In this document: piece after piece, positions 3,316 to 59,406 of the stretch
Layout of the letters: every line of letters begins with the position of its first letter
Numbering within the stretch: position 1 is the stretch's first letter
IMG/VR virus record: IMGVR_UViG_3300045988_109352
Reading direction: 5' to 3' (one strand)
Length of the DNA: 64,000 nucleotides
Source of the DNA: a virus
The notes under the pieces: model-generated
Databases searched by the model: none
What the model saw: only the letters and a program-made list of their open reading frames with translations
Told to the model about the DNA's origin: nothing
Made by a program: the position numbers and the translations under genes

Positions 3316-4131
3316 TTATAGGTTATTATATTCTTTGTATTTAGAAATTGAATTGAACGTAGCTTGTACGCGGCTACTAATATACTGATAAAAATTAGCA
3401 TTCGTAAAGTCAATGCCGATAAACAATTTGTTGTTGTTTCTATTGGCTTCCTGCATGAGTTCCTTTATTTCCGCTTTGTGACACTGGGTGAGAACAAAAC
3501 TTGTACGGTATTTAGTCCAATTCAAAAAGAACAGTTCTTCATCTGTAGAATTTTCATTCAGCATAGGTATTACTTTTCGTAGTATTCTACAAAAACAAGC
3601 GAACTCAGCACTTTCTACTACTTTTCTGTTTCGCGTTCTTGCACTTGCTCTACTTGCTTGCTTCTTACTTTCTTCGTCAATTCGATAATTGCTATTAGCT
3701 GTGCCGGATAATATGCCGCGTGCCTTGTTTGCTGCTAACGCATCTTTTGTACGTTTGCTAATTAGTTCGCGTTCGTATTGTGCAACGGATGCAAAGATAC
3801 CTAATACCATAGTATTTACTACTGGAAGGTCACAAAAATATATATCTATGCCCGTATTTACTACATGAAAAACAAACTCAGCATCTCTTGAAAGCCTATC
3901 CAATTTAGCCACTACAAGGGTGCAACTATTAGCTTTGCAATACTCTATAGCTTTCCACAACTCCACACGGGAACAGTCTTTTCCCGAAGCCACATCTACA
4001 AACTTACCACAAATAATTCCACCTTTGCTATTAATATAGTCTATACAAGTCTTTTCTTGGGCTGACAACCCTAAACCGCTATCACCTTGTTTATTCGTTG
4101 ATACACGAAGGTAGTAAACATATTTATCCAT
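3316..4131 (-). CDS. serine recombinase (resolvase/invertase catalytic domain) with atypical ~130-aa C-terminal region
   Basis: N-terminus YVYYLRVSTNKQ (catalytic Ser), LVVAKLDRLSRD, FASVAQYERELISKRTKDAL are the canonical small-serine-recombinase motifs. The C-terminus has no obvious short HTH. Confidence 0.8.
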   Translation of the reverse strand: MDKYVYYLRVSTNKQGDSGLGLSAQEKTCIDYINSKGGIICGKFVDVASGKDCSRVELWKAIEYCKANSCTLVVAKLDRLSRDAEFVFHVVNTGIDIYFCDLPVVNTMVLGIFASVAQYERELISKRTKDALAANKARGILSGTANSNYRIDEESKKQASRASARTRNRKVVESAEFACFCRILRKVIPMLNENSTDEELFFLNWTKYRTSFVLTQCHKAEIKELMQEANRNNNKLFIGIDFTNANFYQYISSRVQATFNSISKYKEYNNL

Positions 4132-8316: not shown

Positions 8317-8440
8317 CTCTCCTTTGATTATTGCAAGTGCGTCCGCAATCTGAACAACTGTAGGCTATTCCGTTTTCAACTCCCTGCATACACATGCTGA
8401 TAAGCTTGTATTCTTGTTTTGGTAAATTCCCTTGTTTCAT
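8309..8440 (-). CDS. small Cys-containing protein (43 aa)
   Basis: Hand-translated MKQGNLPKQEYKLISMCMQGVENGIAYSCSDCGRTCNNQRRDG. Its stop overlaps the ATG of 7978-8316 (ATGGATAA coupling). Confidence 0.4.
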   Translation of the reverse strand: MKQGNLPKQEYKLISMCMQGVENGIAYSCSDCGRTCNNQRRDG

Positions 8441-8848
8441 AACTCTATTTTTTAAGTGATTGATTTTCAATTTTCTGTACTCTGCATTTCCACGGGCTTG
8501 TAACCGTCTTAGGCTGCATTACAGATGAAGTACGGGAAAATCAGATGGCTATCAGATAACAGCTATATATTATAGCCATATATCCATAGGCTTATATCCT
8601 ATTTCCCGTTCCTTCTTCATATCATTATCTTAGATATAGTTAAGTAGTGTATAGGTAACGACTTCCTAAATACTTGCTGCAATTACGTTTATTGCACTTG
8701 CTTAATACCATATCAATATCTCACAGCGTCTACCCTCGCATGTAATGTTATCCAGTGTAACTATTCATGCGTCAACGCTTATTCAGTATGTAAGTCTTTC
8801 AAATATCGCTTTGTCTTCGTTGAACTCCTTTGTTCCCTTTCGACATTA

Positions 8849-8856
8849 CAAAGATA
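8849..8856 (-). promoter_or_regulatory. -7 promoter box (TATCTTTG on minus strand) for the leftward gene block
   Basis: Exact TAnnTTTG. It would give a ~400-nt leader before the first leftward ORF. Confidence 0.4.
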
Positions 8857-8992
8857 CAGCTTTATTTTGATATATATGTTAATTGAACGTTAAAAATATA
8901 TCAAACTATCGTATTTTAACTCTCATTTACAAATAAAGTGTGTAATTACATAAATATTTACACAAAACAAGCGATAATAAAGGAAAACAACG

Positions 8993-9031
8993 CCAAAAAA
9001 AACAAGTAGTTACTAAAACAAAAAAACTACT
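8993..9031 (-). terminator. intrinsic terminator (minus strand)
   Basis: Stem AGTAGTT/AACTACT (9005-9011 / 9025-9031) followed on the minus strand by a U-rich tract (A-rich 8994-9004 on plus, two non-A bases). Confidence 0.4.
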
Positions 9032-9059
9032 GTTCCAGTTCCTATCCTTTCCGACTTCA

Positions 9060-9410
9060 TGCAAACACGTACAGACACACACATAATATATTATATATAT
9101 TAATTATATATATATAGTGCTTCGCACACTGGCAGCGTTAATAACCATTCGTTTAAAAACAAGTTTTTAAACATTATTCTAAAGTATATCAATTAATAAT
9201 ATCTATATTAATATTATATATATAATATAATTATAATAATATATTATTTAGTTTATATATATATATAATTATATCTATGTTATATTGTATATTATTGTTT
9301 TTATGTGTTATATTGATTTATATAATTATATCTGATTTGTGTTATATTGAATTATATAAAGCCTAATTATTTAAATAATCACGCATGAGCACACACGCAC
9401 ATGCACGTAA
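9060..9410. other. candidate replication origin / control region (AT-rich iterons and palindrome)
   Basis: Near-pure AT segment flanked by CA-rich tracts. Perfect palindrome GTTTAAAAAC-aa-GTTTTTAAAC (9151-9172). 22-nt iterons TGTGTTATATTGAWTTATATAA at 9304-9325 and 9338-9359, partial copy at 9276-9297. Sits at the divergence point of the two gene blocks. Confidence 0.4.
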
Positions 9411-9810
9411 AGCAAAAACATCATGCAATATTCTTTGCAAACGGATGTTTGGTTTAAATATTCAGCCCGTTTAAGCCTTCGTAATTGTTTGAGGCATGCA
9501 ACACTTCATCCGTGCTTCGTTCGTTCTTCAGTCCCCCTACAAACAAGCAATAAGGGCAAATAATCCCTCATAGGGGTATGGGGGGGGGTAAACCGTAGCC
9601 GGAAACGGTGGGGTACACATAGCCTAACTCCGAAAAAAATAAAAAAAATAAATTTAGTCCGTGGCTAAACAATTGATTATCATCCGCTATGTAAATTGCC
9701 GTATTGGGGATAAATGTTGTAAGTGTCTGATATTCAGCCGTTGTCGTGATTCCGACTTCGGGAAGTATTGTCCGTGGGTGTAGTGTATTTGCCTACTGAT
9801 GATTTTAATT

Positions 9811-9830
9811 CCCCCGAAATCGGGGGTTTT
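9811..9830 (+). terminator. intrinsic terminator-like hairpin (plus strand)
   Basis: CCCCCG-AAAT-CGGGGG followed by TTTT. Confidence 0.45.
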
Positions 9831-9987
9831 AGAAACCTTGTATGTTGGTTTGGCTGGTAGTATGCTTGATTTGTATTTATGCAACGTTTATTTGCGTATT
9901 TTACCCACGAACCTAAGTATTTTATCATCTTACCCAAATAAAATTAAAATTTTCGCTTCTATAATTTGGATTTTAGAATTTAGTTAG

Positions 9988-9995
9988 TACATTTG
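9988..9995 (+). promoter_or_regulatory. -7 promoter box TACATTTG for the rightward block
   Basis: Exact TAnnTTTG 50 nt upstream of ATG 10045. Confidence 0.5.
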
Positions 9996-10044
9996 CGGTG
10001 TTGTTTAACTAAAAACTTGAATGATATGAAAGGAGATTTTATTT

Positions 10045-10854
10045 ATGAAGCGTAGTGAGCATTTCAACGTTGCTGCTGGCAAGTGGTTGAATGGTTATCC
10101 CTTGTCGGTTAATGGGCATAAGTACGTTATATCTGGCGTTGATTCGGATAATAGCCTTGTCTTGCATTGTTTAGATGCTAAGGATATTGTTTGTGAATAT
10201 TCGGATTTGATGATAGGCTCTTCCCACATCTTTGTGAACCATTGCGACCATGTGATTTGTGAGGCGAGGCGGGTGTTTGTTGACGAGCAATCCCATCATG
10301 AGCTTTATGTTGTGAACAAAGGTGACGAATGGCGTTCTTATTGGGTTGAAGATTCCTATGTCATAGGTGCTAATTGCTGTACTATTCGTTCTATTTCAGA
10401 CTTTCTCCGCGAGAAGAATAAGTTTTTCTGTGGTGACATTGTGGTTAAGTACGATTGCGGTGTTCCCACTTACTACTTTGTGGATGCTTTTACAGATGTT
10501 TCGGGTGTTTTCACGGTTGTGTTCAGCTACTTGGACGGTGATGGTAAAATTGCTTATTGCTATTCCGACAAGGGAATGTATCGTGTTCTTGAGGATGTTG
10601 CGTTTGAGCATTGGGCTTCTCGTGGATTCAAGTACGACGAGGAGAACAATACGTTGTGTCCCATCTCTTATGAGTTAACTGATAATTCCTATGTTTTTTA
10701 CTGTAGTGACGAGCCAGTTTCGGTTCTTGCTAACTGGAAGATAGGTACTTATGGCTTTGCTAAGGATAAATTTCCCTTCATTGTACCTTTCCACAAGTTT
10801 AATCCCGACAATATTGGTGAAAGTTTGCAGCACAATGTTGTAAAACAGCAATAA
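10045..10854 (+). CDS. hypothetical protein (Cys/His-rich)
   Basis: 269-aa ORF, first gene of the rightward block. Confidence 0.7.
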   Translation: MKRSEHFNVAAGKWLNGYPLSVNGHKYVISGVDSDNSLVLHCLDAKDIVCEYSDLMIGSSHIFVNHCDHVICEARRVFVDEQSHHELYVVNKGDEWRSYWVEDSYVIGANCCTIRSISDFLREKNKFFCGDIVVKYDCGVPTYYFVDAFTDVSGVFTVVFSYLDGDGKIAYCYSDKGMYRVLEDVAFEHWASRGFKYDEENNTLCPISYELTDNSYVFYCSDEPVSVLANWKIGTYGFAKDKFPFIVPFHKFNPDNIGESLQHNVVKQQ

Positions 10855-11909: not shown

Positions 11910-12275
11910 ATGGAGTTATATTTAGAACCTATTTACCGTGACCGGAATTGCAAGGGGCAGTTCAACAAGGGTCACAGATTGAGATTTGGAGGGCGACCTT
12001 GTTCCGAGGAAACTAAGAAGAAGCTGTCGGAGATTATGAAAAAGAGGATAGCTGACGGTTCTACCAAGATGCCTCATTTTCAGAAGGCTGTAATAGTCAT
12101 TAAGGACGGTCGGATTGTGGGTCACTACCCTTCCGCTACGGAGATGGCTCGCAGGCTGGGAATTACCAAGTCGATTATTATCCGTGTTTGCTTGGGTATT
12201 CGGAAAAGCTATCGTGGATGCAATCTTTTTTACGAGTGTGATTCAGATAAATGGATGAAACTAATTAAAGAATGA
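11910..12275 (+). CDS. NUMOD-type DNA-binding protein (homing-endonuclease DNA-binding module without a nuclease domain)
   Basis: GHRLRFGGRPCSEETKKKLSE resembles NUMOD3. SATEMARRLGITKSIIIRVCLGIRKSYRGCNLFYE resembles the NUMOD1/IENR1 HTH of GIY-YIG/HNH homing endonucleases. No GIY-YIG or HNH motif. Confidence 0.5.
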   Translation: MELYLEPIYRDRNCKGQFNKGHRLRFGGRPCSEETKKKLSEIMKKRIADGSTKMPHFQKAVIVIKDGRIVGHYPSATEMARRLGITKSIIIRVCLGIRKSYRGCNLFYECDSDKWMKLIKE

Positions 12276-12341
12276 GGGTAACTATATAGCACTTTGCACT
12301 AAAAATTATATAAATAAATAGGAAATTTAAAATATTCTATT

Positions 12342-12349
12342 TATATTTG
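12342..12349 (+). promoter_or_regulatory. -7 promoter box TATATTTG directly in front of tnpB
   Basis: Exact TAnnTTTG ending 4 nt before ATG 12354, implying a leaderless or near-leaderless mRNA. Confidence 0.45.
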
Positions 12350-12353
12350 CGAC

Positions 12354-13568
12354 ATGTATTTAACGGAGCAACATATAATAACAGTTAATGACAAGAGGTA
12401 CAAGGATTTAGACCGGATTTGTTTCTTATCCAAGAACTTGTATAATGCGGCTTTATATATCATAAAGCAGGAGTTTCTTGTTTCCGGGAAATGGATAAGG
12501 TCTACAGAACTTAACAAAAAGATGGTTGCAGAAAACAACGTTGATTTTAGGGCTATGAGTGGTTCTTCTTCCCAGCAAATTTTAATGGCTTTGGATAAGA
12601 ATTTGAAATCCTATTTTTCTGCCATTAAAGCATGGAAAAGGGATAACAAGAAATTTACTGGATGCCCTAAATTCCCGAAATACAAGCATAAAACAAAAGG
12701 AAGAAATATATTTACTTATTCTTATGTACAATTTAAACATAGAGGGGAGTACATTTATTTCCCGAAGAAAGAAGGTCTGCAACCGTTGAAAACAAGATGC
12801 AAGGAAGGAACAGTTAAGCAAATAAGGTTTGTACCGAAAGCAGATTGTTATGTAATAGAACTGGTATATGAATCAGAAGTAAAGGAAAAGCTACCGGATA
12901 ACAATAAGTATATGTCTATTGATTTGGGAGTTAACAACCTTGCTTCTATTGTAACTAATACGAGTAACAAGGCTGTTTTGGTAGACGGAAAGAAATTGAA
13001 GTCCATCAACCAGTATTACAATAAGAAAAAGGCTAAAGTTCAATCACAATTAAAGAAAACAAATGGAAAGGAAAATTCGAGACGGTTAATGAACCTTACA
13101 AGAAAAAGAAACAATAAGGTCAAGGATTATTTGCATAAGGCAAGCAAGGAAATTGTAAGCATGTGTTTGAAAGACAATATAACTACATTGATAGTAGGAC
13201 ATAATGACGGATGGAAACAGGAAGTGGATATGGGTAAAAGAAACAATCAGAACTTTGTTTCAATTCCGTTTGAAACGTTCATATCAATGTTAAGGTACAA
13301 ATCTGAAAGACAAGGACTAAGATTTGTTGAAATAAACGAATCTCACACGTCAAAATGCAGTTCTTTAGATTTAGAAGAAGTAAAACATCATGATAGTTAT
13401 ATTGGAAAGAGAGTAAAAAGAGGTCTTTTCAGAACAAAGAACGGGATTTTACTCAATGCAGATATAAACGGAGCCTACAACATCATGAGAAAAGTAAAGG
13501 GGGATGCAGCAATGCCACCCTATAGAGGGTTTGGGTATAACCCAGTTAAGAAATTTATTAACAAATAG
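12354..13568 (+). CDS. tnpB: TnpB-like RNA-guided nuclease family protein (divergent lineage)
   Basis: 404 aa. RuvC-I SIDLGVNNLASIV; NQNFVSIPF...ESHTSKCSSLD; RuvC-III NADINGAYNIMRK. The canonical RuvC-II xxEDL motif is replaced by IVGHNDGWKQEVD, and the CxxC zinc-finger pairs are absent. Confidence 0.85.
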   Translation: MYLTEQHIITVNDKRYKDLDRICFLSKNLYNAALYIIKQEFLVSGKWIRSTELNKKMVAENNVDFRAMSGSSSQQILMALDKNLKSYFSAIKAWKRDNKKFTGCPKFPKYKHKTKGRNIFTYSYVQFKHRGEYIYFPKKEGLQPLKTRCKEGTVKQIRFVPKADCYVIELVYESEVKEKLPDNNKYMSIDLGVNNLASIVTNTSNKAVLVDGKKLKSINQYYNKKKAKVQSQLKKTNGKENSRRLMNLTRKRNNKVKDYLHKASKEIVSMCLKDNITTLIVGHNDGWKQEVDMGKRNNQNFVSIPFETFISMLRYKSERQGLRFVEINESHTSKCSSLDLEEVKHHDSYIGKRVKRGLFRTKNGILLNADINGAYNIMRKVKGDAAMPPYRGFGYNPVKKFINK

Positions 13569-13597
13569 ATACAAGTGTAAACTTGTATATAATTACC
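13440..13597 (+). ncRNA. predicted omega-RNA (reRNA) scaffold of the solo tnpB; 5' limit uncertain
   Basis: By analogy with characterised TnpB systems the guide RNA spans the tnpB 3' end and right end. Hairpins GCA-GCAA-UGC, ACCCU-AUAG-AGGGU, UGGGU-AUA-ACCCA and the terminal ACAAGU-GUAA-ACUUGU are read here. Confidence 0.45.
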
Positions 13598-13608
13598 AGA
13601 ATGAGATT

Positions 13609-13992
13609 ATGAACATGTTCAATACAAACTCTACTACCGTCATGCAGTCCAAGTTGTTGCTTGGCTTGGGTATTGACCCTCGGACGGCAGATTTGACCTT
13701 GCACGACGAGGAACGCGACATACCTCTTTGGAGTATGATGCGTCTGATAGACATGATTCCCGGCTTTATTGTGGATGATGATGGTTATACATACTCATTT
13801 ACCATAAGTAAGGGGACATACGTGTATAATCTGTCCTATACCCGTAAGACCAAGCATGGGGAGAAGACTTTAATCTCCTTTCACAATCCGGTAGACAGCT
13901 TTGGCGAAACGGTCATTCTGATTATCAAATGGCTGTTTGATATGAAGCTGTTTCCGACCAAATACATGGCGAAATACGTTAAAAAGAAATGA
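13609..13992 (+). CDS. hypothetical protein
   Basis: Start moved to MNMFNTNST (13609) so it does not overlap tnpB or the IS right end. Confidence 0.6.
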   Translation: MNMFNTNSTTVMQSKLLLGLGIDPRTADLTLHDEERDIPLWSMMRLIDMIPGFIVDDDGYTYSFTISKGTYVYNLSYTRKTKHGEKTLISFHNPVDSFGETVILIIKWLFDMKLFPTKYMAKYVKKK

Positions 13993-25982: not shown

Positions 25983-25994
25983 ATCAATTTGTTA

Positions 25995-26200
25995 TGTGCA
26001 AAAGTGAACTACCCACGAACTAAAGATTCGTGGGCTTCCGACTTCACAGAGGAATGCCCTTTCAAAAGATTAGGTCTTCTATCCTCTCCATCGGTGTAAT
26101 CGGCAGTCCCTGCCGATATATTATTTAATCCTAATTTTAGGATATTGATAGCAGCATTTACATCTCTATTATGATGTGTACCGCAAGATGGGCAACCCCA
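25995..26200 (-). ncRNA. predicted omega-RNA scaffold of tnpB (3' end of ORF plus RE hairpin); limits approximate
   Basis: The tnpB ORF tail ...[17 protein letters not shown] is encoded by the RE hairpin region, a typical signature of the guide-RNA segment. Confidence 0.45.
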
Positions 26201-27214
26201 TTCTCTTACTTTCAAGTCTTTTATTTCGCTATTACGATAGCCACAAACATTACAAAGCTGAGAGGATGGAAAAAACCTATCAATCTTAACTACATTTCTA
26301 CCATTCCAATTAGCCTTATATGTTAGCATAGTGACGAATGTCCCCCAACTTGCATCAGTAATTGATTTAGCAAGTTTATGGTTTCGTACCATACCTTTTA
26401 CATTAAGGTCTTCAATACAAATGGTATCGTAGTTAGAGATTAGAGAATGAGAACACTTATGCAAGTAGTCCATACGGCAAGCAGAAATCTTCTCGTGAAG
26501 TTTGGCGACTTTGAGCCTTTGGTTTTCGTACTCATTACTGCCTTTCTTTTTTCTTGAGAGGTGTTTCTGTGCTACTGCAAGTTTCTTCTCATATCTCTTT
26601 GTGTATCTATTATTCTTGAATACTTCACCATCAGATGTTATCAGTAGGTCTTTCAAACCTAAATCTACACCAACTGCTTTATTAGCAGGTGCAAGTTCTT
26701 GATACTCCTCTATTGTGAATACTGATACAAAATACTTTCCTGTTGGAGTTTTAGTTAGACTAACTTTGCCCATCTTACCTTTGATTTCTCTATGCAGACG
26801 GATAGTTATACCACTCTTGAATTTAGGTAGCCACAACTTACTATCTTCAATAGTTGCAAATTGGGGTACGGTAAATGTATTCTTACCTTTCTTTGAGTGA
26901 TAGTTAGGGAACTTCGCTCTCTTTTGGAAGAAATTAGTGTATGCAGTTTCAAGATTACGCAAAGCAAATTGAAGTGTTTGAGAGTTTACTTCTTTAAGCC
27001 AAGCGGTTTCTTCTTTTTTCTTTAATTCAGTTAAAGCCTTTGCCTGAGCATAGTAGTTATCACTCTCTCCTTCCTCTTTATATTGCTCTTGCCTTTGATT
27101 AAGGAAATAGTTATAGACAAAGCGAGTACAGCCGAAGTGCTTCGCCAACAATTCCATTTGGGAAGCATTTGGATATATCCTAAATCTGTATGTTCTATTT
27201 ATCGTCTTAATCAT
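26009..27214 (-). CDS. tnpB: TnpB RNA-guided endonuclease (canonical motifs)
   Basis: Start at [16 protein letters not shown]. Ruv[11 protein letters not shown], Ruv[14 protein letters not shown], zinc finger CNVCGY...[18 protein letters not shown] (RuvC-III). The 44-aa N-terminal ORF extension is rejected. Confidence 0.9.
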
Positions 27215-27292
27215 AGTGCAAATATACATATAAGTATTTACAAAAACAAGAAATGTTTTGTAAAAGTGAAATATTTTCGTTAATTTTGTAGT

Positions 27293-27697
27293 ATGAGGAG
27301 TGATTATGAGCATAGTAACCGACACAAATATTACTTGAAGTGTCATTTGATATTCTGTATTAAGTACAGAAAGAAGTTGCTCGTAGGCAAATTCAATGAT
27401 ACTATCAAATGTATTTTAAAGGGTATCGCAGAAAAGTCTGATTTTGATATTGAAATAATGGAGTCAGACAAAGACCACATCCATTTTCTCATCAACTATC
27501 CACCGAACATATCAGTAACATCTATTGTTAGAAAACTCAAGCAAGAGAGTACGATATTCGCTTGGAAACTATTTGAGAGTAAGTTGAGAAAAGAGTTTTG
27601 GGTTGAACGCACATTATGGAGTGATGGATATTTCTGTTGCTCAATAGGAGAAGCAAGTCCAGAAACAATTAGGAAATATATTGAACAACAAGGTTAG
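27293..27697 (+). CDS. tnpA: IS200/IS605 TnpA Y1 (HUH) transposase
   Basis: 134 aa. [14 protein letters not shown]-like core, HUH motif DHIHFLI, catalytic Tyr context [11 protein letters not shown]. Confidence 0.9.
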
Positions 27698-27725
27698 TGC
27701 CTTACATCCCATAGGCTAAAGACCT

Positions 27726-27932
27726 ATGGGTTTTCGGCACTTAAATATAAATGGATATAGTCAATGGGTAAGTAACTGTTTTAAAGATTATTATGTAATA
27801 CAATACGAACGTTTAATACCCGTATTATGGCGAGGTATTCAGCAAGTAGATAATGAGGTAGCTACCCTCAAAAAGAAGATAGCTACCTTAGAAAAAGAAC
27901 TTAGTTCTGTAAAGAGGCAACTAAGCCTTTAA
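27726..27932 (+). pseudogene. orphan C-terminal remnant of an S74-type tail-fiber chaperone domain
   Basis: YERLIPVLWRGIQQVDNEVATLKKKIATLEKEL follows the pattern of the last helix and coiled coil of intramolecular chaperone domains. No upstream coding partner. The first codons lie in the IS left-end hairpin. Converges on and overlaps the tail-fiber stop by 32 nt. Confidence 0.4.
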
Positions 27933-49400: not shown

Positions 49401-51792
49401 GCAACAGATTAAGTTGGTAGATGATATTCAAAAGAAGTTCTTGCAGCTTGTGAAAGACACTGGCAATATAACCTATGCTACCGAAAAAGTGAAGGAAGCT
49501 TACCAAGACTTATTCGACAATGCGTTTAAGGGTGTCAGTGTTGATATTAACGACTTGATTACCTTTGATAAAGGTAGTGCTCCAAAGTTCTATAATAAGA
49601 TAGCTGAAACCCTCAAATCGCCAGAAGCTAAACAGTTGGTTGCCGGGAAGAAGGCACAGAGCGAGATTGAATATTCCATCTCTATTAATTCTGCAAGTGT
49701 TGCTTTGGCAAAACGTAAGATTGAGGGAATGTTCCAAGGCTATGAATTAGAATTGGATATTGAAGGCGCTGGGCAGTTCGGTTCACTGTTTGCTGGTTTG
49801 TTTGAGTATGACCCCGTTTCACTTGAACAGTTGGAAGCTGATGTCAACGCTACATTGAATAATCTGAAAAGTAATGTTTCATCTTTCCAAGAAGAACAAA
49901 AGAGATTACAAGACTTAATCAATCAGAATCCTAACGACACAAGGGTTGACAGTTGGAAAAGTTCTCTTGACACACTTGTTAAGAATGAGAGTGACGCTTC
50001 AAAGGCTATTGAAGATATTCAGAAAAGGTTAAGCGATACTATCAAGAAAGCTGCATTGGATGATTTTAAGAACTTCCAATCTATAGCAGACAAGTACGCT
50101 GAAATGGAGGATAAGATAGCGGAGGTCGAAAGAAAACGTTTAGAAGACCAAGCTTCTATCTCCAATAGAGTTACTGATGCAACTTCTGATTTGGCGAAGC
50201 TGGAATTGCAGTTGTCTGTGACCGAAAGCCCCAATGTAAGAGCAGAGATAGAAAGTGAGATTGAAGAAATACAAAACTTTATAAACGAGAAAGCCCCAAA
50301 GCTCTCTCTTGCTGTTGATACTGGTGCGGAACAAGAAAAGACTAAGATAGCTTTTGAGGAATGGAAGAATACTTCCAATGCTTGGGAGAAGTCGTTTCAA
50401 GACTTAAGTATTATAGGTACTATCTCTTTAAATCAAATGATTGACGAGATAACTAAGTTTGCAGAGGCTAATAAAGCTAATATGCCAATAGACCAATACA
50501 AAGAACTATTAGCACGGATTAAGGCTTTAAAGACCGAAGTAAATTCTCGTAACCCATTTGCTGCTCTTGCCAACCAAGTTAAAAACTTAAAAGATAAGCT
50601 GAAAGAAAGCGAAAATCCTTTTAAAGACTTATTAGCTAATATAGAAGAACTTGGAATGATGGTAAGTTCTGTAGGGAATATATTTGAGCAGATGGGATTT
50701 TCGGAAGGTGTCACTGATACTATCTCAACAGTAGGAGAAACTATACAAGGAGTTGCCCAAGCTGCTGATGGAGTTAAAGATATAATGTCGGGCAATTTTA
50801 TTAGCGGTGGTATAAAGGCTGTTGGTGGTATCTGGAAAGGAGTATCAGCCATATTCAATGCCGGGAACAAGAAAATTACAAGAGAGGTTGAAAAGAGTGA
50901 GAGAAGAGTTAAGCAATTAGAGAACGCTTATAAGAATCTTGAACGTGCTGTTGATAAGTCGATGGGTAAAGCTGAAATTTCAGCGCAGAAGGCAGCTATT
51001 GCAAATCAGAAGGCACAGCTTGCAGAAGTTCAACGTCAGCTTCAACTTGAAAAGAGCCGGAAGAAGAAAAACCGCGACCAAGACAAAATCATAGAATTAG
51101 AGGGTCAAGTTACCGACTTACAGAATGCCATTGATGATGCTACTACTAATATAGTAAACACTTTGCTCGGTACAGATGTAAAATCTGCCGCAGAAAGCTT
51201 TGCCGATTCTTGGATTTCAGCTTGGAAAGAAGGTGCTGATACAATGGAAAATTTAGAGGAGAGCTTCGATGATTTAATAACAAATATGATTGTCAAGTCG
51301 CTTGCTTCTACGATTGTCGGAGAACGGTTAAAGAGCATGTTTGCTATGGTTAAGAGATTTACCGAAGAAAACTCTGCTGGCGGTGTAGGTATCACTACCG
51401 AAGAAGCCAAACAGATAGCTGACTTAGGTAAAGAGTTAATTCCTTTGATAAACGAGGACTTAAAGAACTTGATGGGTCAGCTTGGTATAGAGTTCGGTAG
51501 TGGAGTGAAAGACGCAGCCCTTTCTTCCTTACAGAAAGGAATCTCTTCGGTGACCGAAGAAACTGCTGGGGCTATTGAAGCTTATTTAAATATGGTTAGT
51601 GGGCAAGTGTTCCAACAAACTACTATTCTGCAAGGTATATGGGATATGACTAATGTCAATGCAGGAACGATGTCGCAGATGTTACTTCAAATGAGAAGTA
51701 GTTATCAGATACTTCAAGCCATTCAAGTTTGGACGGTAAATATTTCTACTGCCGCAGGAAATGGTGTAAATGTTAGGATATTACCCGATTAA
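46456..51792 (+). CDS. tape measure protein
   Basis: 1778 aa, long coiled-coil composition with central hydrophobic segments, after the chaperone pair. Confidence 0.85.
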   Translation: MADNKDVVISASMSDKDLLSSIDETLKKTEKRLEDFTNKLEGKLASVEGFADQLGKNIGKGLVDGFNQQIRPLETKISELEAKLKSLGATNIAQGNTAATQATTTNVSVDVNSMNQALQVANNLREVFSKIQGNTTRIKNNMEQLATVKTDVQEARINVHVAQREKLLQREILLRQQTANLAARIAREEEKSRISQGGQSYEKAMAMGNKSIQERIEKLKALQIVQRNLSTDDANYAAKLATVNKEMASLKKANADAISSGVQLQKVNSGLMESFKNLGKRVLFYAGLGAITGFVKSLMDVRGQYELLERSIGAVLNDFEKGSQIFREQQTLALKSPFTVIDLASTTKMLAAYNFEAEELVDVSKRIADISAALGVPMERLTYNLGQIRAQTVLTARDARDFANAGLSITTELAKMYTEQEERIVSVGDVMDRMSNKMVSFTDVMKVLNRYTDEGGMFYDFQAKQAETLAGQLSNLTDAYDFMLNEIGKENQGMLTGSISLVRSLFENWRSVANILTVVATALGVYKTAQIAVATVQLAANMNLRKYSEYLVIARKALRDKAAATKLAEASTQNLNKTLLAVAKNPYAVIIAGLAALGVAIYQAYTNATKFRKELESITAGGLINAQQMTSDFDALVKKLNESEKGSRNFSDALKEINNTYGSYLPNMLTEINYASELAKNYNKVVDAIYNKAKSQALEKSYQVITEKYSEQQQDAIANIIEKMTEGGISKVNAQEITRNFVASLDKGLSKGETYMARFYSISKKYLGGSTAEMEKLNPVVQSLFGSSGSIDKLGKAITEQKKAIQEVREASDIISNRPTYSSVIEGQAIDNINEKYKKLEQNQKNEKLRLIELQAAYKKLGNTYMYDQITEQLQKYNVELKDWQKNVNSIVQKAGGGAGAGFAIKQDEDIWSYIDRLKKEYRSLTAQQEEISKGLTASPEEKEYVANRLKVARQIASALNLDLSTQKEMNKAKKEEMDLLKQQIKLVDDIQKKFLQLVKDTGNITYATEKVKEAYQDLFDNAFKGVSVDINDLITFDKGSAPKFYNKIAETLKSPEAKQLVAGKKAQSEIEYSISINSASVALAKRKIEGMFQGYELELDIEGAGQFGSLFAGLFEYDPVSLEQLEADVNATLNNLKSNVSSFQEEQKRLQDLINQNPNDTRVDSWKSSLDTLVKNESDASKAIEDIQKRLSDTIKKAALDDFKNFQSIADKYAEMEDKIAEVERKRLEDQASISNRVTDATSDLAKLELQLSVTESPNVRAEIESEIEEIQNFINEKAPKLSLAVDTGAEQEKTKIAFEEWKNTSNAWEKSFQDLSIIGTISLNQMIDEITKFAEANKANMPIDQYKELLARIKALKTEVNSRNPFAALANQVKNLKDKLKESENPFKDLLANIEELGMMVSSVGNIFEQMGFSEGVTDTISTVGETIQGVAQAADGVKDIMSGNFISGGIKAVGGIWKGVSAIFNAGNKKITREVEKSERRVKQLENAYKNLERAVDKSMGKAEISAQKAAIANQKAQLAEVQRQLQLEKSRKKKNRDQDKIIELEGQVTDLQNAIDDATTNIVNTLLGTDVKSAAESFADSWISAWKEGADTMENLEESFDDLITNMIVKSLASTIVGERLKSMFAMVKRFTEENSAGGVGITTEEAKQIADLGKELIPLINEDLKNLMGQLGIEFGSGVKDAALSSLQKGISSVTEETAGAIEAYLNMVSGQVFQQTTILQGIWDMTNVNAGTMSQMLLQMRSSYQILQAIQVWTVNISTAAGNGVNVRILPD

Positions 51793-58222: not shown

Positions 58223-58402
58223 GGCGTTTATATCCAAGCTTACACTTGGACAACTTGACGTTTCATCGAGCCACTACTTCTTAGGGAGCTTGCGCTCCGG
58301 TCGTCCATAGTTGGGTTCTCACCGTCCAATCCCCGATGCGCCATCGGTTGGGTTAATACTATTTTAAATCACTCTGCGTAGCTTGGTTTTCGCTACATTG
58401 GC
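58223..58402 (-). ncRNA. structured repeat R1: tnpB-less omega-RNA-like / IS605 right-end-like module
   Basis: 180 nt, 176/180 identical to 59182-59361. Minus-strand hairpins with GNRA loops (58285-58298 GCAA; 58233-58250 GUAA). The 3' hairpin is homologous to 13571-13586. Confidence 0.55.
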
Positions 58403-58417
58403 TTTTTTTATAAAAAG

Positions 58418-59167
58418 CTAAGTGTCACTCCTCATTTCGTTTAAGGCTTCTCCTTCATCAACCTCTCTTTTAGGAATGGCAATTGATTGTTTAAATTCAC
58501 CACCGTTATCCCTTATCAGAATCTCAATCTTGTTCATTGCCTCACGTTCGATGTTGCAGATTTGTTCCTTCAAATCTTTTACCTTTTCTTCATCAAGCGT
58601 TGTTTCAAGAGAAAGATAGCGGATAGTTTCGATATACTTCTGATAAAATTCGTTGCGAGAAATATCGGAAGGTGCTGGCATGAGCATGGTATTACTTTTT
58701 GCCAAGTATGAGAAGTACATACACATTACATTGGTGACTTGCAATGTATCTCCTCCAACGGCAAAGGCTGGCTCGGAAAGCGTATAAATCCATCGCTCTG
58801 TATGCTGCAATACCTTAACAATCTCTTCCGGCATTTCGTCAGCATGTTCCATCAGTTGAGAGAAGCTGAAACCTTGTACATTCCCATTCTTGTCCTTAAC
58901 TTCTCCAAATTCTTTGTTTGCTTCGATGCACTCACAGAATGTTCTAAGCCACAGATAAGGATTAGAATAACCGCCACTCACTACATTGGTAAATACGTTT
59001 CTATGGAAGTTTGTAGACACAACTGAGTAATCGTCGGTAACTGCAATAGAAATTCCTCTATCGTCCAGTCTGCAATACATGTGTCCTTTGGTCTTTGGCA
59101 CGAATACATAGGAAGTACCTATGAGTTTTACAAGCTGTGCCTTGCTCATTTTACTAATATCCATCAT
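58418..59167 (-). CDS. hypothetical protein flanked by the R1/R2 repeats
   Basis: 249-aa ORF. Confidence 0.7.
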   Translation of the reverse strand: MMDISKMSKAQLVKLIGTSYVFVPKTKGHMYCRLDDRGISIAVTDDYSVVSTNFHRNVFTNVVSGGYSNPYLWLRTFCECIEANKEFGEVKDKNGNVQGFSFSQLMEHADEMPEEIVKVLQHTERWIYTLSEPAFAVGGDTLQVTNVMCMYFSYLAKSNTMLMPAPSDISRNEFYQKYIETIRYLSLETTLDEEKVKDLKEQICNIEREAMNKIEILIRDNGGEFKQSIAIPKREVDEGEALNEMRSDT

Positions 59168-59181
59168 ATCACTTTTGGTTA

Positions 59182-59361
59182 GGCGTTTATATCCAAGCTT
59201 ACACTTGAATAACTTGACGTTTCATCGAGCCACTACTTCTTAGGGAGCTTGCGCTCCGGTCGTCCATAGTTGGGTTCTCACCGTCCAATCCCCGATACGC
59301 CATCGGTTGGGTTAATACTATTTTAAATCTCTCTGCGTAGCTTGGTTTTCGCTACATTGGC
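59182..59361 (-). ncRNA. structured repeat R2: tnpB-less omega-RNA-like / IS605 right-end-like module
   Basis: Second copy. Three of its four differences from R1 preserve pairing on the minus strand only. Confidence 0.55.
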
Positions 59362-59406
59362 ATTAGGTTATATACTAAGTATCACTTTGTATATAAGTGC
59401 CTTTGG

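Follow-up and report, generated by a model that had tools for sequence, protein, structure and literature searches.

How does a tnpB gene without a neighboring transposase gene come to lie in a phage genome, and what does its product do there? The question is raised by a gene for a 404-amino-acid TnpB-family protein in the virus record IMGVR_UViG_3300045988_109352, of which we analyzed a stretch of 64,000 nucleotides (the window). TnpB biology has been worked out for insertion sequences of the IS200/IS605 and IS607 types, which excise without leaving a scar, and in prokaryotes TnpB is regarded as rarely residing on DDE cut-and-paste transposons, a carrier that is typical of Fanzors in eukaryotes. 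The window is ~95% identical to Bacteroides phage C3_41T2LP, which was isolated on Bacteroides uniformis, and this sister phage has the locus empty: between the two flanking genes, it reads ...AAAGAATGAGATTATGAAC... and nothing else lies there. The 8-bp sequence AGAATGAG occurs once in this empty site and twice in the window, on both sides of the insert, as target-site duplications at 12269..12276 (left) and 13598..13605 (right), to which no strand is assigned. The insert itself spans 12277-13597 (1321 bp), and the TGA stop codon of the upstream gene lies inside the left duplication. A preliminary description of the window had placed the tnpB gene exactly in an intergenic gap and suggested looking for an empty locus in related phages; the tnpB-free site in C3_41T2LP bears out the exact position, while the terminal inverted repeats and the 8-bp duplication had been overlooked. 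The label NUMOD given to the upstream gene corresponds only to a sub-threshold Pfam match (E 0.0026).

The left terminal inverted repeat, GGTAACTATATAGCACTTTGCAC (12277..12299, plus strand), agrees at 18/23 positions with the reverse complement of the right end, and the right repeat with which it pairs reads GGTAATTATATACAAGTTTACAC on the minus strand (13575..13597). Close relatives of the protein are encoded at 259 loci in IMG/VR. We compared ends and duplications in 80 IMG/VR loci plus later additions and found perfect 8-bp duplications of unrelated sequence (e.g., ATATTTGA, AGGAAATG, AATGATAG, AAACAGTT, and AACAATTG) around the same repeats at at least 15 independent phage sites. TnpB is the only open reading frame (ORF) in >50 distinct copies, and another phage record contains a copy that is 81% identical and aligns with the window from 12277 to 13591. 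An exact k-mer search for the inverted repeats in distant loci was uninformative in such A/T-rich DNA.

To which transposons do these ends belong? Scanning IMG/VR with the repeat GGTAAYTATATANNNNTTTRCA returned the TnpB elements, miniatures of 246 and 337 bp, and, in related gut-phage contigs, elements of 2.3-3.7 kb with the same repeats and 8-bp duplications. The longer elements encode 305-309-amino-acid DDE_Tnp_IS1595 (ISXO2-like) proteins, with Pfam matches of 1e-48 and 4e-45. Repeats of the GGTAAYTATATANNNNTTTRCA type (at most 3 mismatches) flank the transposase genes on both sides in L301, L343, L283, and L382; L301 has GGTAACTATATACCAGTTTGCA at each end and the duplication TTTTCATA, and the left repeat of the window element matches the L301 repeat at 20/23 positions. 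An IS1595 transposase also lies on one contig with a TnpB copy (L063) and another on one contig with a copy of the miniature element R described below (L236). The same repeat frame additionally holds canonical zinc-finger TnpBs (L303 and L340; IIIEDLN...CxxC...NDRD) that are only ~22-25% identical to the window protein. In IS1595 elements, the terminal repeats begin with GG, and insertion generates A/T-rich direct repeats of 8 bp (PMC12561309); the window element has both, and it likewise has relatives with the same repeats that carry the transposase, as well as cargo and miniature forms, whereas it encodes no transposase in cis and its cargo is an RNA-guided nuclease with the predicted guide RNA. 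We are therefore highly confident that the insert is a TnpB-carrying IS1595-type transposon with tnpB as its sole gene, which is non-autonomous because it contains no transposase, and we infer that an IS1595 transposase mobilizes it in trans. The preliminary description had suggested that it may be part of a phage-encoded RNA-guided system rather than a simple passenger insertion sequence; the gene does turn out to be a transposon passenger, though of an IS1595-type DDE transposon and not of an IS200/IS605 element.

Two other accounts of the element's mobility must be weighed against these ends. One is that it is an IS1341-type (TnpB-only) IS200/IS605 element moved by the Y1 TnpA encoded at 27293-27697, or else an IS607 remnant. 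A Y1 tnpA and a canonical tnpB are indeed both present in the window, and the next relatives of the protein (~42% identical) adjoin serine-recombinase tnpA genes. Elements of the IS200/IS605 and IS607 types, however, have neither inverted repeats nor a target-site duplication (PMC13565253 and PMC6188088), whereas this element has both at many sites, so it is neither, and its repeats match those of IS1595-type elements. The Y1 tnpA, the only one in the window, is not adjacent to the element but belongs to a separate IS605-type unit with different, hairpin-type ends, in agreement with the earlier remark that the tnpB gene stands without a tnpA. As for IS607, there is no tnpA inside the element, and the resolvase-domain gene at 3316-4131 is 8 kb away and has its catalytic domain at the N terminus. 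We consider this account highly improbable. The other account is that TnpB, with its RNase-H fold, is itself the transposase that makes the repeats and the duplication. Its being the sole ORF in so many copies would fit, but a bona fide IS1595 DDE transposase is encoded by other elements that have these repeats, and two unrelated TnpB lineages as well as protein-free miniatures use them too, which makes this account extremely unlikely.

Two earlier candidates for clues to the mobilizer, the phage resolvase-domain protein encoded at 3316-4131 and a similarity of the repeats to those of IS26, were dropped after IS1595 transposases with identical repeats had been found. The 3316-4131 gene (minus strand) encodes a 271-amino-acid protein with an N-terminal resolvase domain (Pfam 6e-24) that is annotated as an integrase in C3_41T2LP; this phage serine recombinase has no connection with the mobility of the element. 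Two of the transposase-bearing IS1595-type elements in phages carry extra cargo (L301 5808-6677 and L343 3366-3848), namely, a zinc-ribbon membrane protein and a DnaJ-domain protein.

We next consider the protein. tnpB (12354..13568, plus strand) encodes 404 amino acids that match OrfB_IS605 (6e-26) and Cas12f1-like_TNB (6e-12) in Pfam and, over residues 9-380, guided_TnpB ("RNA-guided endonuclease TnpB family"; 1.5e-57) in NCBIfam. An AlphaFold2 model built from 24 sequences has a mean predicted local distance difference test score of 85, and its best Foldseek matches are Cas12f, ISDra2 TnpB, ISFba1 TnpB, and mimivirus Fanzor2, all with a probability of 1.00. Sequence and fold (WED/REC/RuvC/TNB architecture) thus both place the protein in the TnpB family, as had been proposed. 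In an alignment of 23 relatives, reaching down to 52% identity, D190 of RuvC-I (SIDLG; codon 12921-12923) and D370 of RuvC-III (NADIN; codon 13461-13463) are invariant. By profile alignment to ISDra2 TnpB, the catalytic E278 of the latter lies opposite N284 (codon 13203-13205), while 23/23 family members have a glutamate, E329 (codon 13338-13340), within NE[SA][HY]TSK; all four codons are on the plus strand. Cys335 is the sole conserved cysteine among these relatives, so the CxxC...CxxC zinc finger is absent. The alignment thus upholds what had been noted about the two aspartates, the replaced RuvC-II glutamate, and the lost zinc finger, and the asparagine at the canonical position speaks against an intact conventional triad.

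These features have counterparts among the TnpBs with a rearranged RuvC-II that were described as "RIIr" (Altae-Tran et al. 2023; PMC10691335) and "Ealt" (Yoon et al. 2023; PMC10711439). These proteins, too, have lost the canonical glutamate; a conserved one stands instead within an E-x-[YH]-T-S motif, a few residues N-terminal to the zinc-finger position (PMC10711439). They share the NADxN motif of RuvC-III with the window protein, and some of the branches are described as virus-specific and some as lacking the zinc finger (PMC10691335). Since loss of the zinc finger is known in some branches, the absence of the C4 zinc finger between RuvC-II and RuvC-III is no bar to membership in the family. 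The window protein differs from these TnpBs in having D-L-G rather than the pro-Fanzor D-P-G in RuvC-I, Asn rather than Gly at the canonical position, and an IS1595-type rather than an IS607 carrier. It is also no Fanzor or pro-Fanzor, which combine D-P-G with the alternative glutamate in a eukaryotic or cyanobacterial host, since it has SIDLG and resides in a Bacteroides phage. Judged by its alignment, the protein is of the known rearranged, relocated-glutamate type. The ORF is intact in 67 of 68 distinct copies, and 66 of those 67 have all three catalytic motifs; among 40 representatives of the 68 copies, codon positions 1 and 2 are much less variable than position 3, a sign of purifying selection on tnpB. 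With this conserved Asp/alternative Glu/Asp set, the nuclease is predicted to be active, as the preliminary description had offered as one of its two readings.

The lineage is found in phages. Among 185,579 bacterial and archaeal species (one genome each), we found no relative of >47% identity, which, as far as this sample goes, excludes that the locus results from a plain hop of an insertion sequence out of the host chromosome, a possibility that had been raised earlier. The next relatives in isolated phages (~42% identity) occur in Helicobacter phages (next to a resolvase gene), Lak megaphages, a crAss-like phage, and, at 49924-51102, C3_41T2LP itself. Several more distant homologues lie directly 3' of an IS607-type tnpA, and from this arrangement, the protein lineage looks IS607-derived and subsequently captured by the IS1595 frame. 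The homologue in C3_41T2LP (49924-51102; L211 9924-11102) is another cysteine-free TnpB of the same family with the alternative glutamate and is 44% identical to the window protein; the ends of its element are not cleanly definable, and the matching locus in the window, 1493-1962, has ~470 bp of unrelated sequence instead.

If the protein is an active nuclease, which RNA guides it? In OMEGA systems of the IS200/IS605 and IS607 types, the protein has the same fold, and the omega-RNA and the 3' end of tnpB overlap. The third-codon entropy in the same 40 representatives is ~0.7 over most of tnpB and drops to 0.0-0.3 from 13485 to the stop codon. Based on this collapse of synonymous variation and on hairpin covariation, we predict an omega-RNA scaffold core at 13485..13597 (plus strand), which includes the 3' end of the gene and stops at the boundary of the element. 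On the plus strand, the core comprises hairpin A (13499-13520), followed by the linker TATAGAG, hairpin B (13527-13543), hairpin C (13545-13562), and a terminal GNRA-looped hairpin D, ATACAAGT-GTAA-ACTTGTAT (13569-13588), after which the tail ATAATTACC leads to 13597. Covariation was assessed in 51 diverse sequences, some of which are only ~36% identical in protein. In all of them, hairpin B is 100% paired; at two pairs, 14-15 sequences have changes on both sides, and none of the shuffles matched this covariation. Hairpin B has two invariant G-C pairs, formed by the GG of the Gly392 codon and the CC of the Pro397 codon (GGN...CCN); because these residues encode invariant pairs, their conservation in the protein is probably imposed by the RNA. 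Hairpin D, which had been recognized after the stop codon before, shows compensatory variants in other copies, and it also forms part of the terminal inverted repeat in elements that bear the transposase, so its function may lie with the transposase, with the RNA, or with both. Altogether, the last ~110 nt, i.e., the 3' end of the ORF and the right repeat, are constrained as RNA in a manner that fits an omega-RNA.

Other indications for the RNA were weaker or were set aside. Single-sequence folds gave z scores of -1.6 for R and -2.6 for the tnpB 3' end, both weak, and Rfam gave no match at gathering thresholds over the whole window, nor at E ≤ 1 over the two R copies in the window. A pseudoknot between the GGUA loop of hairpin B and the terminal UACC (GGUG/CACC in a sister lineage) was considered, but we do not claim it, as it involves 1-2 changes and most lineages were missed by the automatic extraction. 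A second zone of low synonymous change lies at 13317-13365 (codons 322-338), ~120 nt 5' of the omega-RNA core; it could represent a 5' part of the RNA, an internal promoter, or constraint from the alternative glutamate.

With the element ending at 13597, the TnpB/omega-RNA architecture would place the guide directly downstream, with a predicted read-out of AGAATGAGATTATGAACATG (13598..13617, plus strand). Its first 8 nt are the right duplication, and the read-out AGAATGAGATTATGAAC spans the ATG at 13609 of the downstream gene, as had been anticipated. Expression of tnpB is probably driven from within the element: TAnnTTTG is a known Bacteroides promoter consensus, and the Bacteroidota-type -7 box TATATTTG (12342-12349, plus strand), already noted 4 nt 5' of the ATG, is kept in 59/68 distinct copies. 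It is this consensus from which a promoter function of TATATTTG is predicted.

A guide taken from the right flank goes together, in the IS200/IS605 and IS607 OMEGA systems, with a motif in the left flank. We found a candidate for such a motif here as well. The trinucleotide TAA stands directly 5' of the left duplication (12266..12268, plus strand, in the window) in 16/17 independent insertions oriented by tnpB, whereas the mirror position after the right duplication matches in 1/17 (Fisher p = 2.5e-7). That TAA merely represents the stop codon of the upstream gene can be dismissed, since it is an in-frame stop codon in only 1/16 cases and is out of frame in the window (TTAA followed by AGAATGAG). 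Other TnpB lineages in the same repeat frame have AAA (the type of R and its TnpB) or TTA (two copies of a 42-44% relative) instead. A one-sided, cargo-specific motif is not expected of a symmetric transposase, and we therefore read TAA as the likely target-adjacent motif (TAM), which would be enriched because insertions whose empty allele can be cut have spread. C3_41T2LP, in its empty allele, has TTAA directly before the complete predicted guide sequence. In the occupied genome, by contrast, ...TTACC precedes the right copy, and the match of the left copy to the guide is limited to 8 nt.

These observations suggest the following scheme. The element would be pasted behind the upstream stop codon by an IS1595-type transposase that acts in trans and is encoded by another element, either in the same phage or in a co-infecting one. 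TnpB would be made from the element's own Bacteroides-type promoter, and the omega-RNA would consist of the last ~110 or more nucleotides and run into the duplication and the flank to yield the guide AGAAUGAGAUUAUGAAC.... The complex would recognize TAA plus the guide sequence, a pair present only in insertion-free genomes such as C3_41T2LP, while the genome carrying the element would be immune because of the sequences that precede or limit its two copies. After a cut at the empty allele, recombinational repair from the occupied genome would copy the element in, i.e., it would home between co-infecting phages. The logic of such non-restorative transposon homing has been described (PMC13565253).

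Several points weigh against this scheme. TAA could be a target preference of the transposase; the comparison included just three transposase-bearing copies with perfect duplications. A homologue of the IS1595-type transposase is present in neither the window nor C3_41T2LP, so that mobility here needs outside help. Hairpin C pairs in only 56% of cells of the automatic alignment, partly because its length varies. The ends of the omega-RNA and the start of the guide are read from sequence, and nuclease activity in a clade without the zinc finger is likewise a prediction of this kind. The scheme also competes with the reading that TnpB is active but serves only to retain the element by recutting the donor site after IS1595 excision, or is idle cargo, with no homing between phages. 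Such restorative homing is the established role of TnpB in IS605/IS607 (PMC13565253), and this genome contains no transposase. On the other hand, the clade is phage-restricted, being absent from the species genomes searched above, and occupies many sites in many phage lineages; an oriented TAA is the expected outcome of post-insertion selection for cutting empty alleles; and as DDE excision already leaves a break, restoration would add little gain (an argument made in PMC13565253). We therefore regard retention or idle cargo as unlikely, and the combination of a non-autonomous IS1595 element with TnpB homing as the probable explanation overall. For the narrower proposition that the element acts as a homing drive between co-infecting phages, we see about an even chance.

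An observation on the guide side of the element concerns copies with a common left flank whose right flanks come in four or five different versions (L005, L006, L007, L012, L020, and L049, as well as L004 versus L013-L015); L005 has an additional TTACCTTACC at the right junction. Adjacent deletion, a cut-repair scar, and modular recombination are candidates for the origin of this variation.

Could the protein instead regulate phage genes, with further guides encoded elsewhere in the window? Two short elements on the minus strand, R1 and R2, had been proposed to form an RNA-guided system together with this TnpB. R2 (59182..59401) is a 220-bp miniature bounded by GGCACTTATATACAAAG...CTTGGATATAAACGCC with the duplication TAACCAAA and contains the omega-RNA region of a canonical TnpB; R1 (58223..58428) is a second copy with a truncated left repeat, in the remnant of which lies the stop codon of the gene at 58418..59167. 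Related phages have elements of the same kind, ~213-220 bp long, with GGCACTTATATACAAAG...CTTGGATATAAACGCC repeats and perfect 8-bp duplications. The similarity of R1/R2 to the element is beyond chance: a 21-nt match links the right end of the element to their minus-strand sequence, and it is confined to the terminal repeat and the hairpin. The source of R was identified only after collecting its copies from IMG/VR. The 3'-terminal 135 nt of R correspond, on contigs of other phages, to the end of a gene for a canonical zinc-finger TnpB of ~395 amino acids (...CPKCGTTNDRDLLAARNI...RQVVQV, followed by the stop codon) plus its right end. This TnpB is ~25% identical to the window TnpB, and blastx of R against relatives of the latter gave nothing significant. 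Its gene is present neither in the window nor in C3_41T2LP, although C3_41T2LP has four R copies. Based on these comparisons, R1/R2 are best described as orphan, omega-RNA-bearing miniatures of a sister transposon, sharing the transposition frame with the window element and belonging to a different nuclease; they resemble mobilized stand-alone omega-RNAs (PMC10691335). We thus find no support for the proposed functional pairing: the TnpB whose scaffold R carries has no gene in this window.

This bears on the second reading of the preliminary description, in which the protein is a nuclease-dead or domesticated RNA-guided repressor of the gene at 13609, with R1/R2 as extra guides. Both the canonical RuvC-II glutamate and the zinc finger are gone, the guide would cover the start codon of the next gene, and stand-alone omega-RNAs can work in trans elsewhere (PMC10691335). 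Set against this, the Asp/alternative Glu/Asp set is conserved in all relatives, unlike in TldR-type nuclease-dead proteins; the element is mobile and has a new flank, and hence a new guide, at each of at least 17 sites, so that it has no fixed target; the guide target in the occupied genome lacks the TAA motif; and the scaffold of R1/R2 stems from only a distant TnpB. A domesticated regulator is thus very unlikely.

How does the element compare with known systems? It shares the right-flank guide and the left-flank motif with the OMEGA systems of IS200/IS605 and IS607 and differs from them in transposition chemistry, end structure, duplication, and the lack of a Y1 or serine TnpA. The closest analogue is the Fanzor-only ascovirus element (Spodoptera frugiperda; PMC10711439 and PMC3627910), in which, as here, a TnpB-family nuclease is the sole gene between inverted repeats with a duplication and the guide RNA extends across the right repeat and on into flanking sequence. 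The present element is prokaryotic, resides in a Bacteroides phage, and has an IS1595-type partner, and its 8-bp duplication varies in sequence, for which reason it must belong to the guide and not to the scaffold. As DDE partners of TnpB, PMC13565253, citing PMC10691335, names IS630, ISL2, and IS1031. Within the literature library that was searched, no publication links TnpB functionally to IS1595; in this sense, the IS1595 carrier is new.

Taken further, the data raise the possibility that IS1595-type elements in phages of gut Bacteroidota have repeatedly swapped their transposase for a TnpB-omega-RNA module, in at least two deeply different TnpB lineages and with RNA-only miniatures such as R1/R2 as further derivatives, and that they persist as RNA-guided gene drives between co-infecting phages, with a TAM (TAA, or AAA or TTA in others) set by selection after insertion and not by the transposase. 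We put this forward tentatively, as a generalization that falls just short of an even chance. If the swap occurred, these elements would be a prokaryotic-virus counterpart of Fanzor in eukaryotic DDE transposons. They form a compact, abundant, and phage-restricted case, with 259 loci in IMG/VR and nearly all distinct copies intact, in which sequence alone reveals the partner transposase, the empty allele, a candidate TAM, the predicted omega-RNA, and RNA-only derivatives, and the isolated sister phage C3_41T2LP holds the empty target. Two questions thereby become testable: whether TnpB drives super-Mendelian spread between viruses and how a guide RNA coexists with inverted repeats and a variable duplication. 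A small (404-amino-acid), zinc-finger-less predicted nuclease with a short A/T candidate TAM is also a candidate for engineering in Bacteroides.

Two further regions of the window deserve mention. At 25988-27746 lies a complete IS200/IS605-type unit with hairpin ends, consisting of tnpB at 26009-27214 (NCBIfam IS200_TnpB, 1e-140) and the divergent Y1 tnpA at 27293-27697. The earlier characterization of this second TnpB as canonical is correct, with the correction that the gene is on the minus strand. C3_41T2LP has other content at this locus, including an R miniature with the duplication TTGATATG. Finally, a 1.7-kb stretch without long ORFs (8320-10045) separates divergent gene blocks. A repeat-like match within it, at 8941, is due to chance. 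The stretch contains long (AT)n-like repeats at ~9080-9370 and a G-rich run near 9580 and may represent an origin or a regulatory region.

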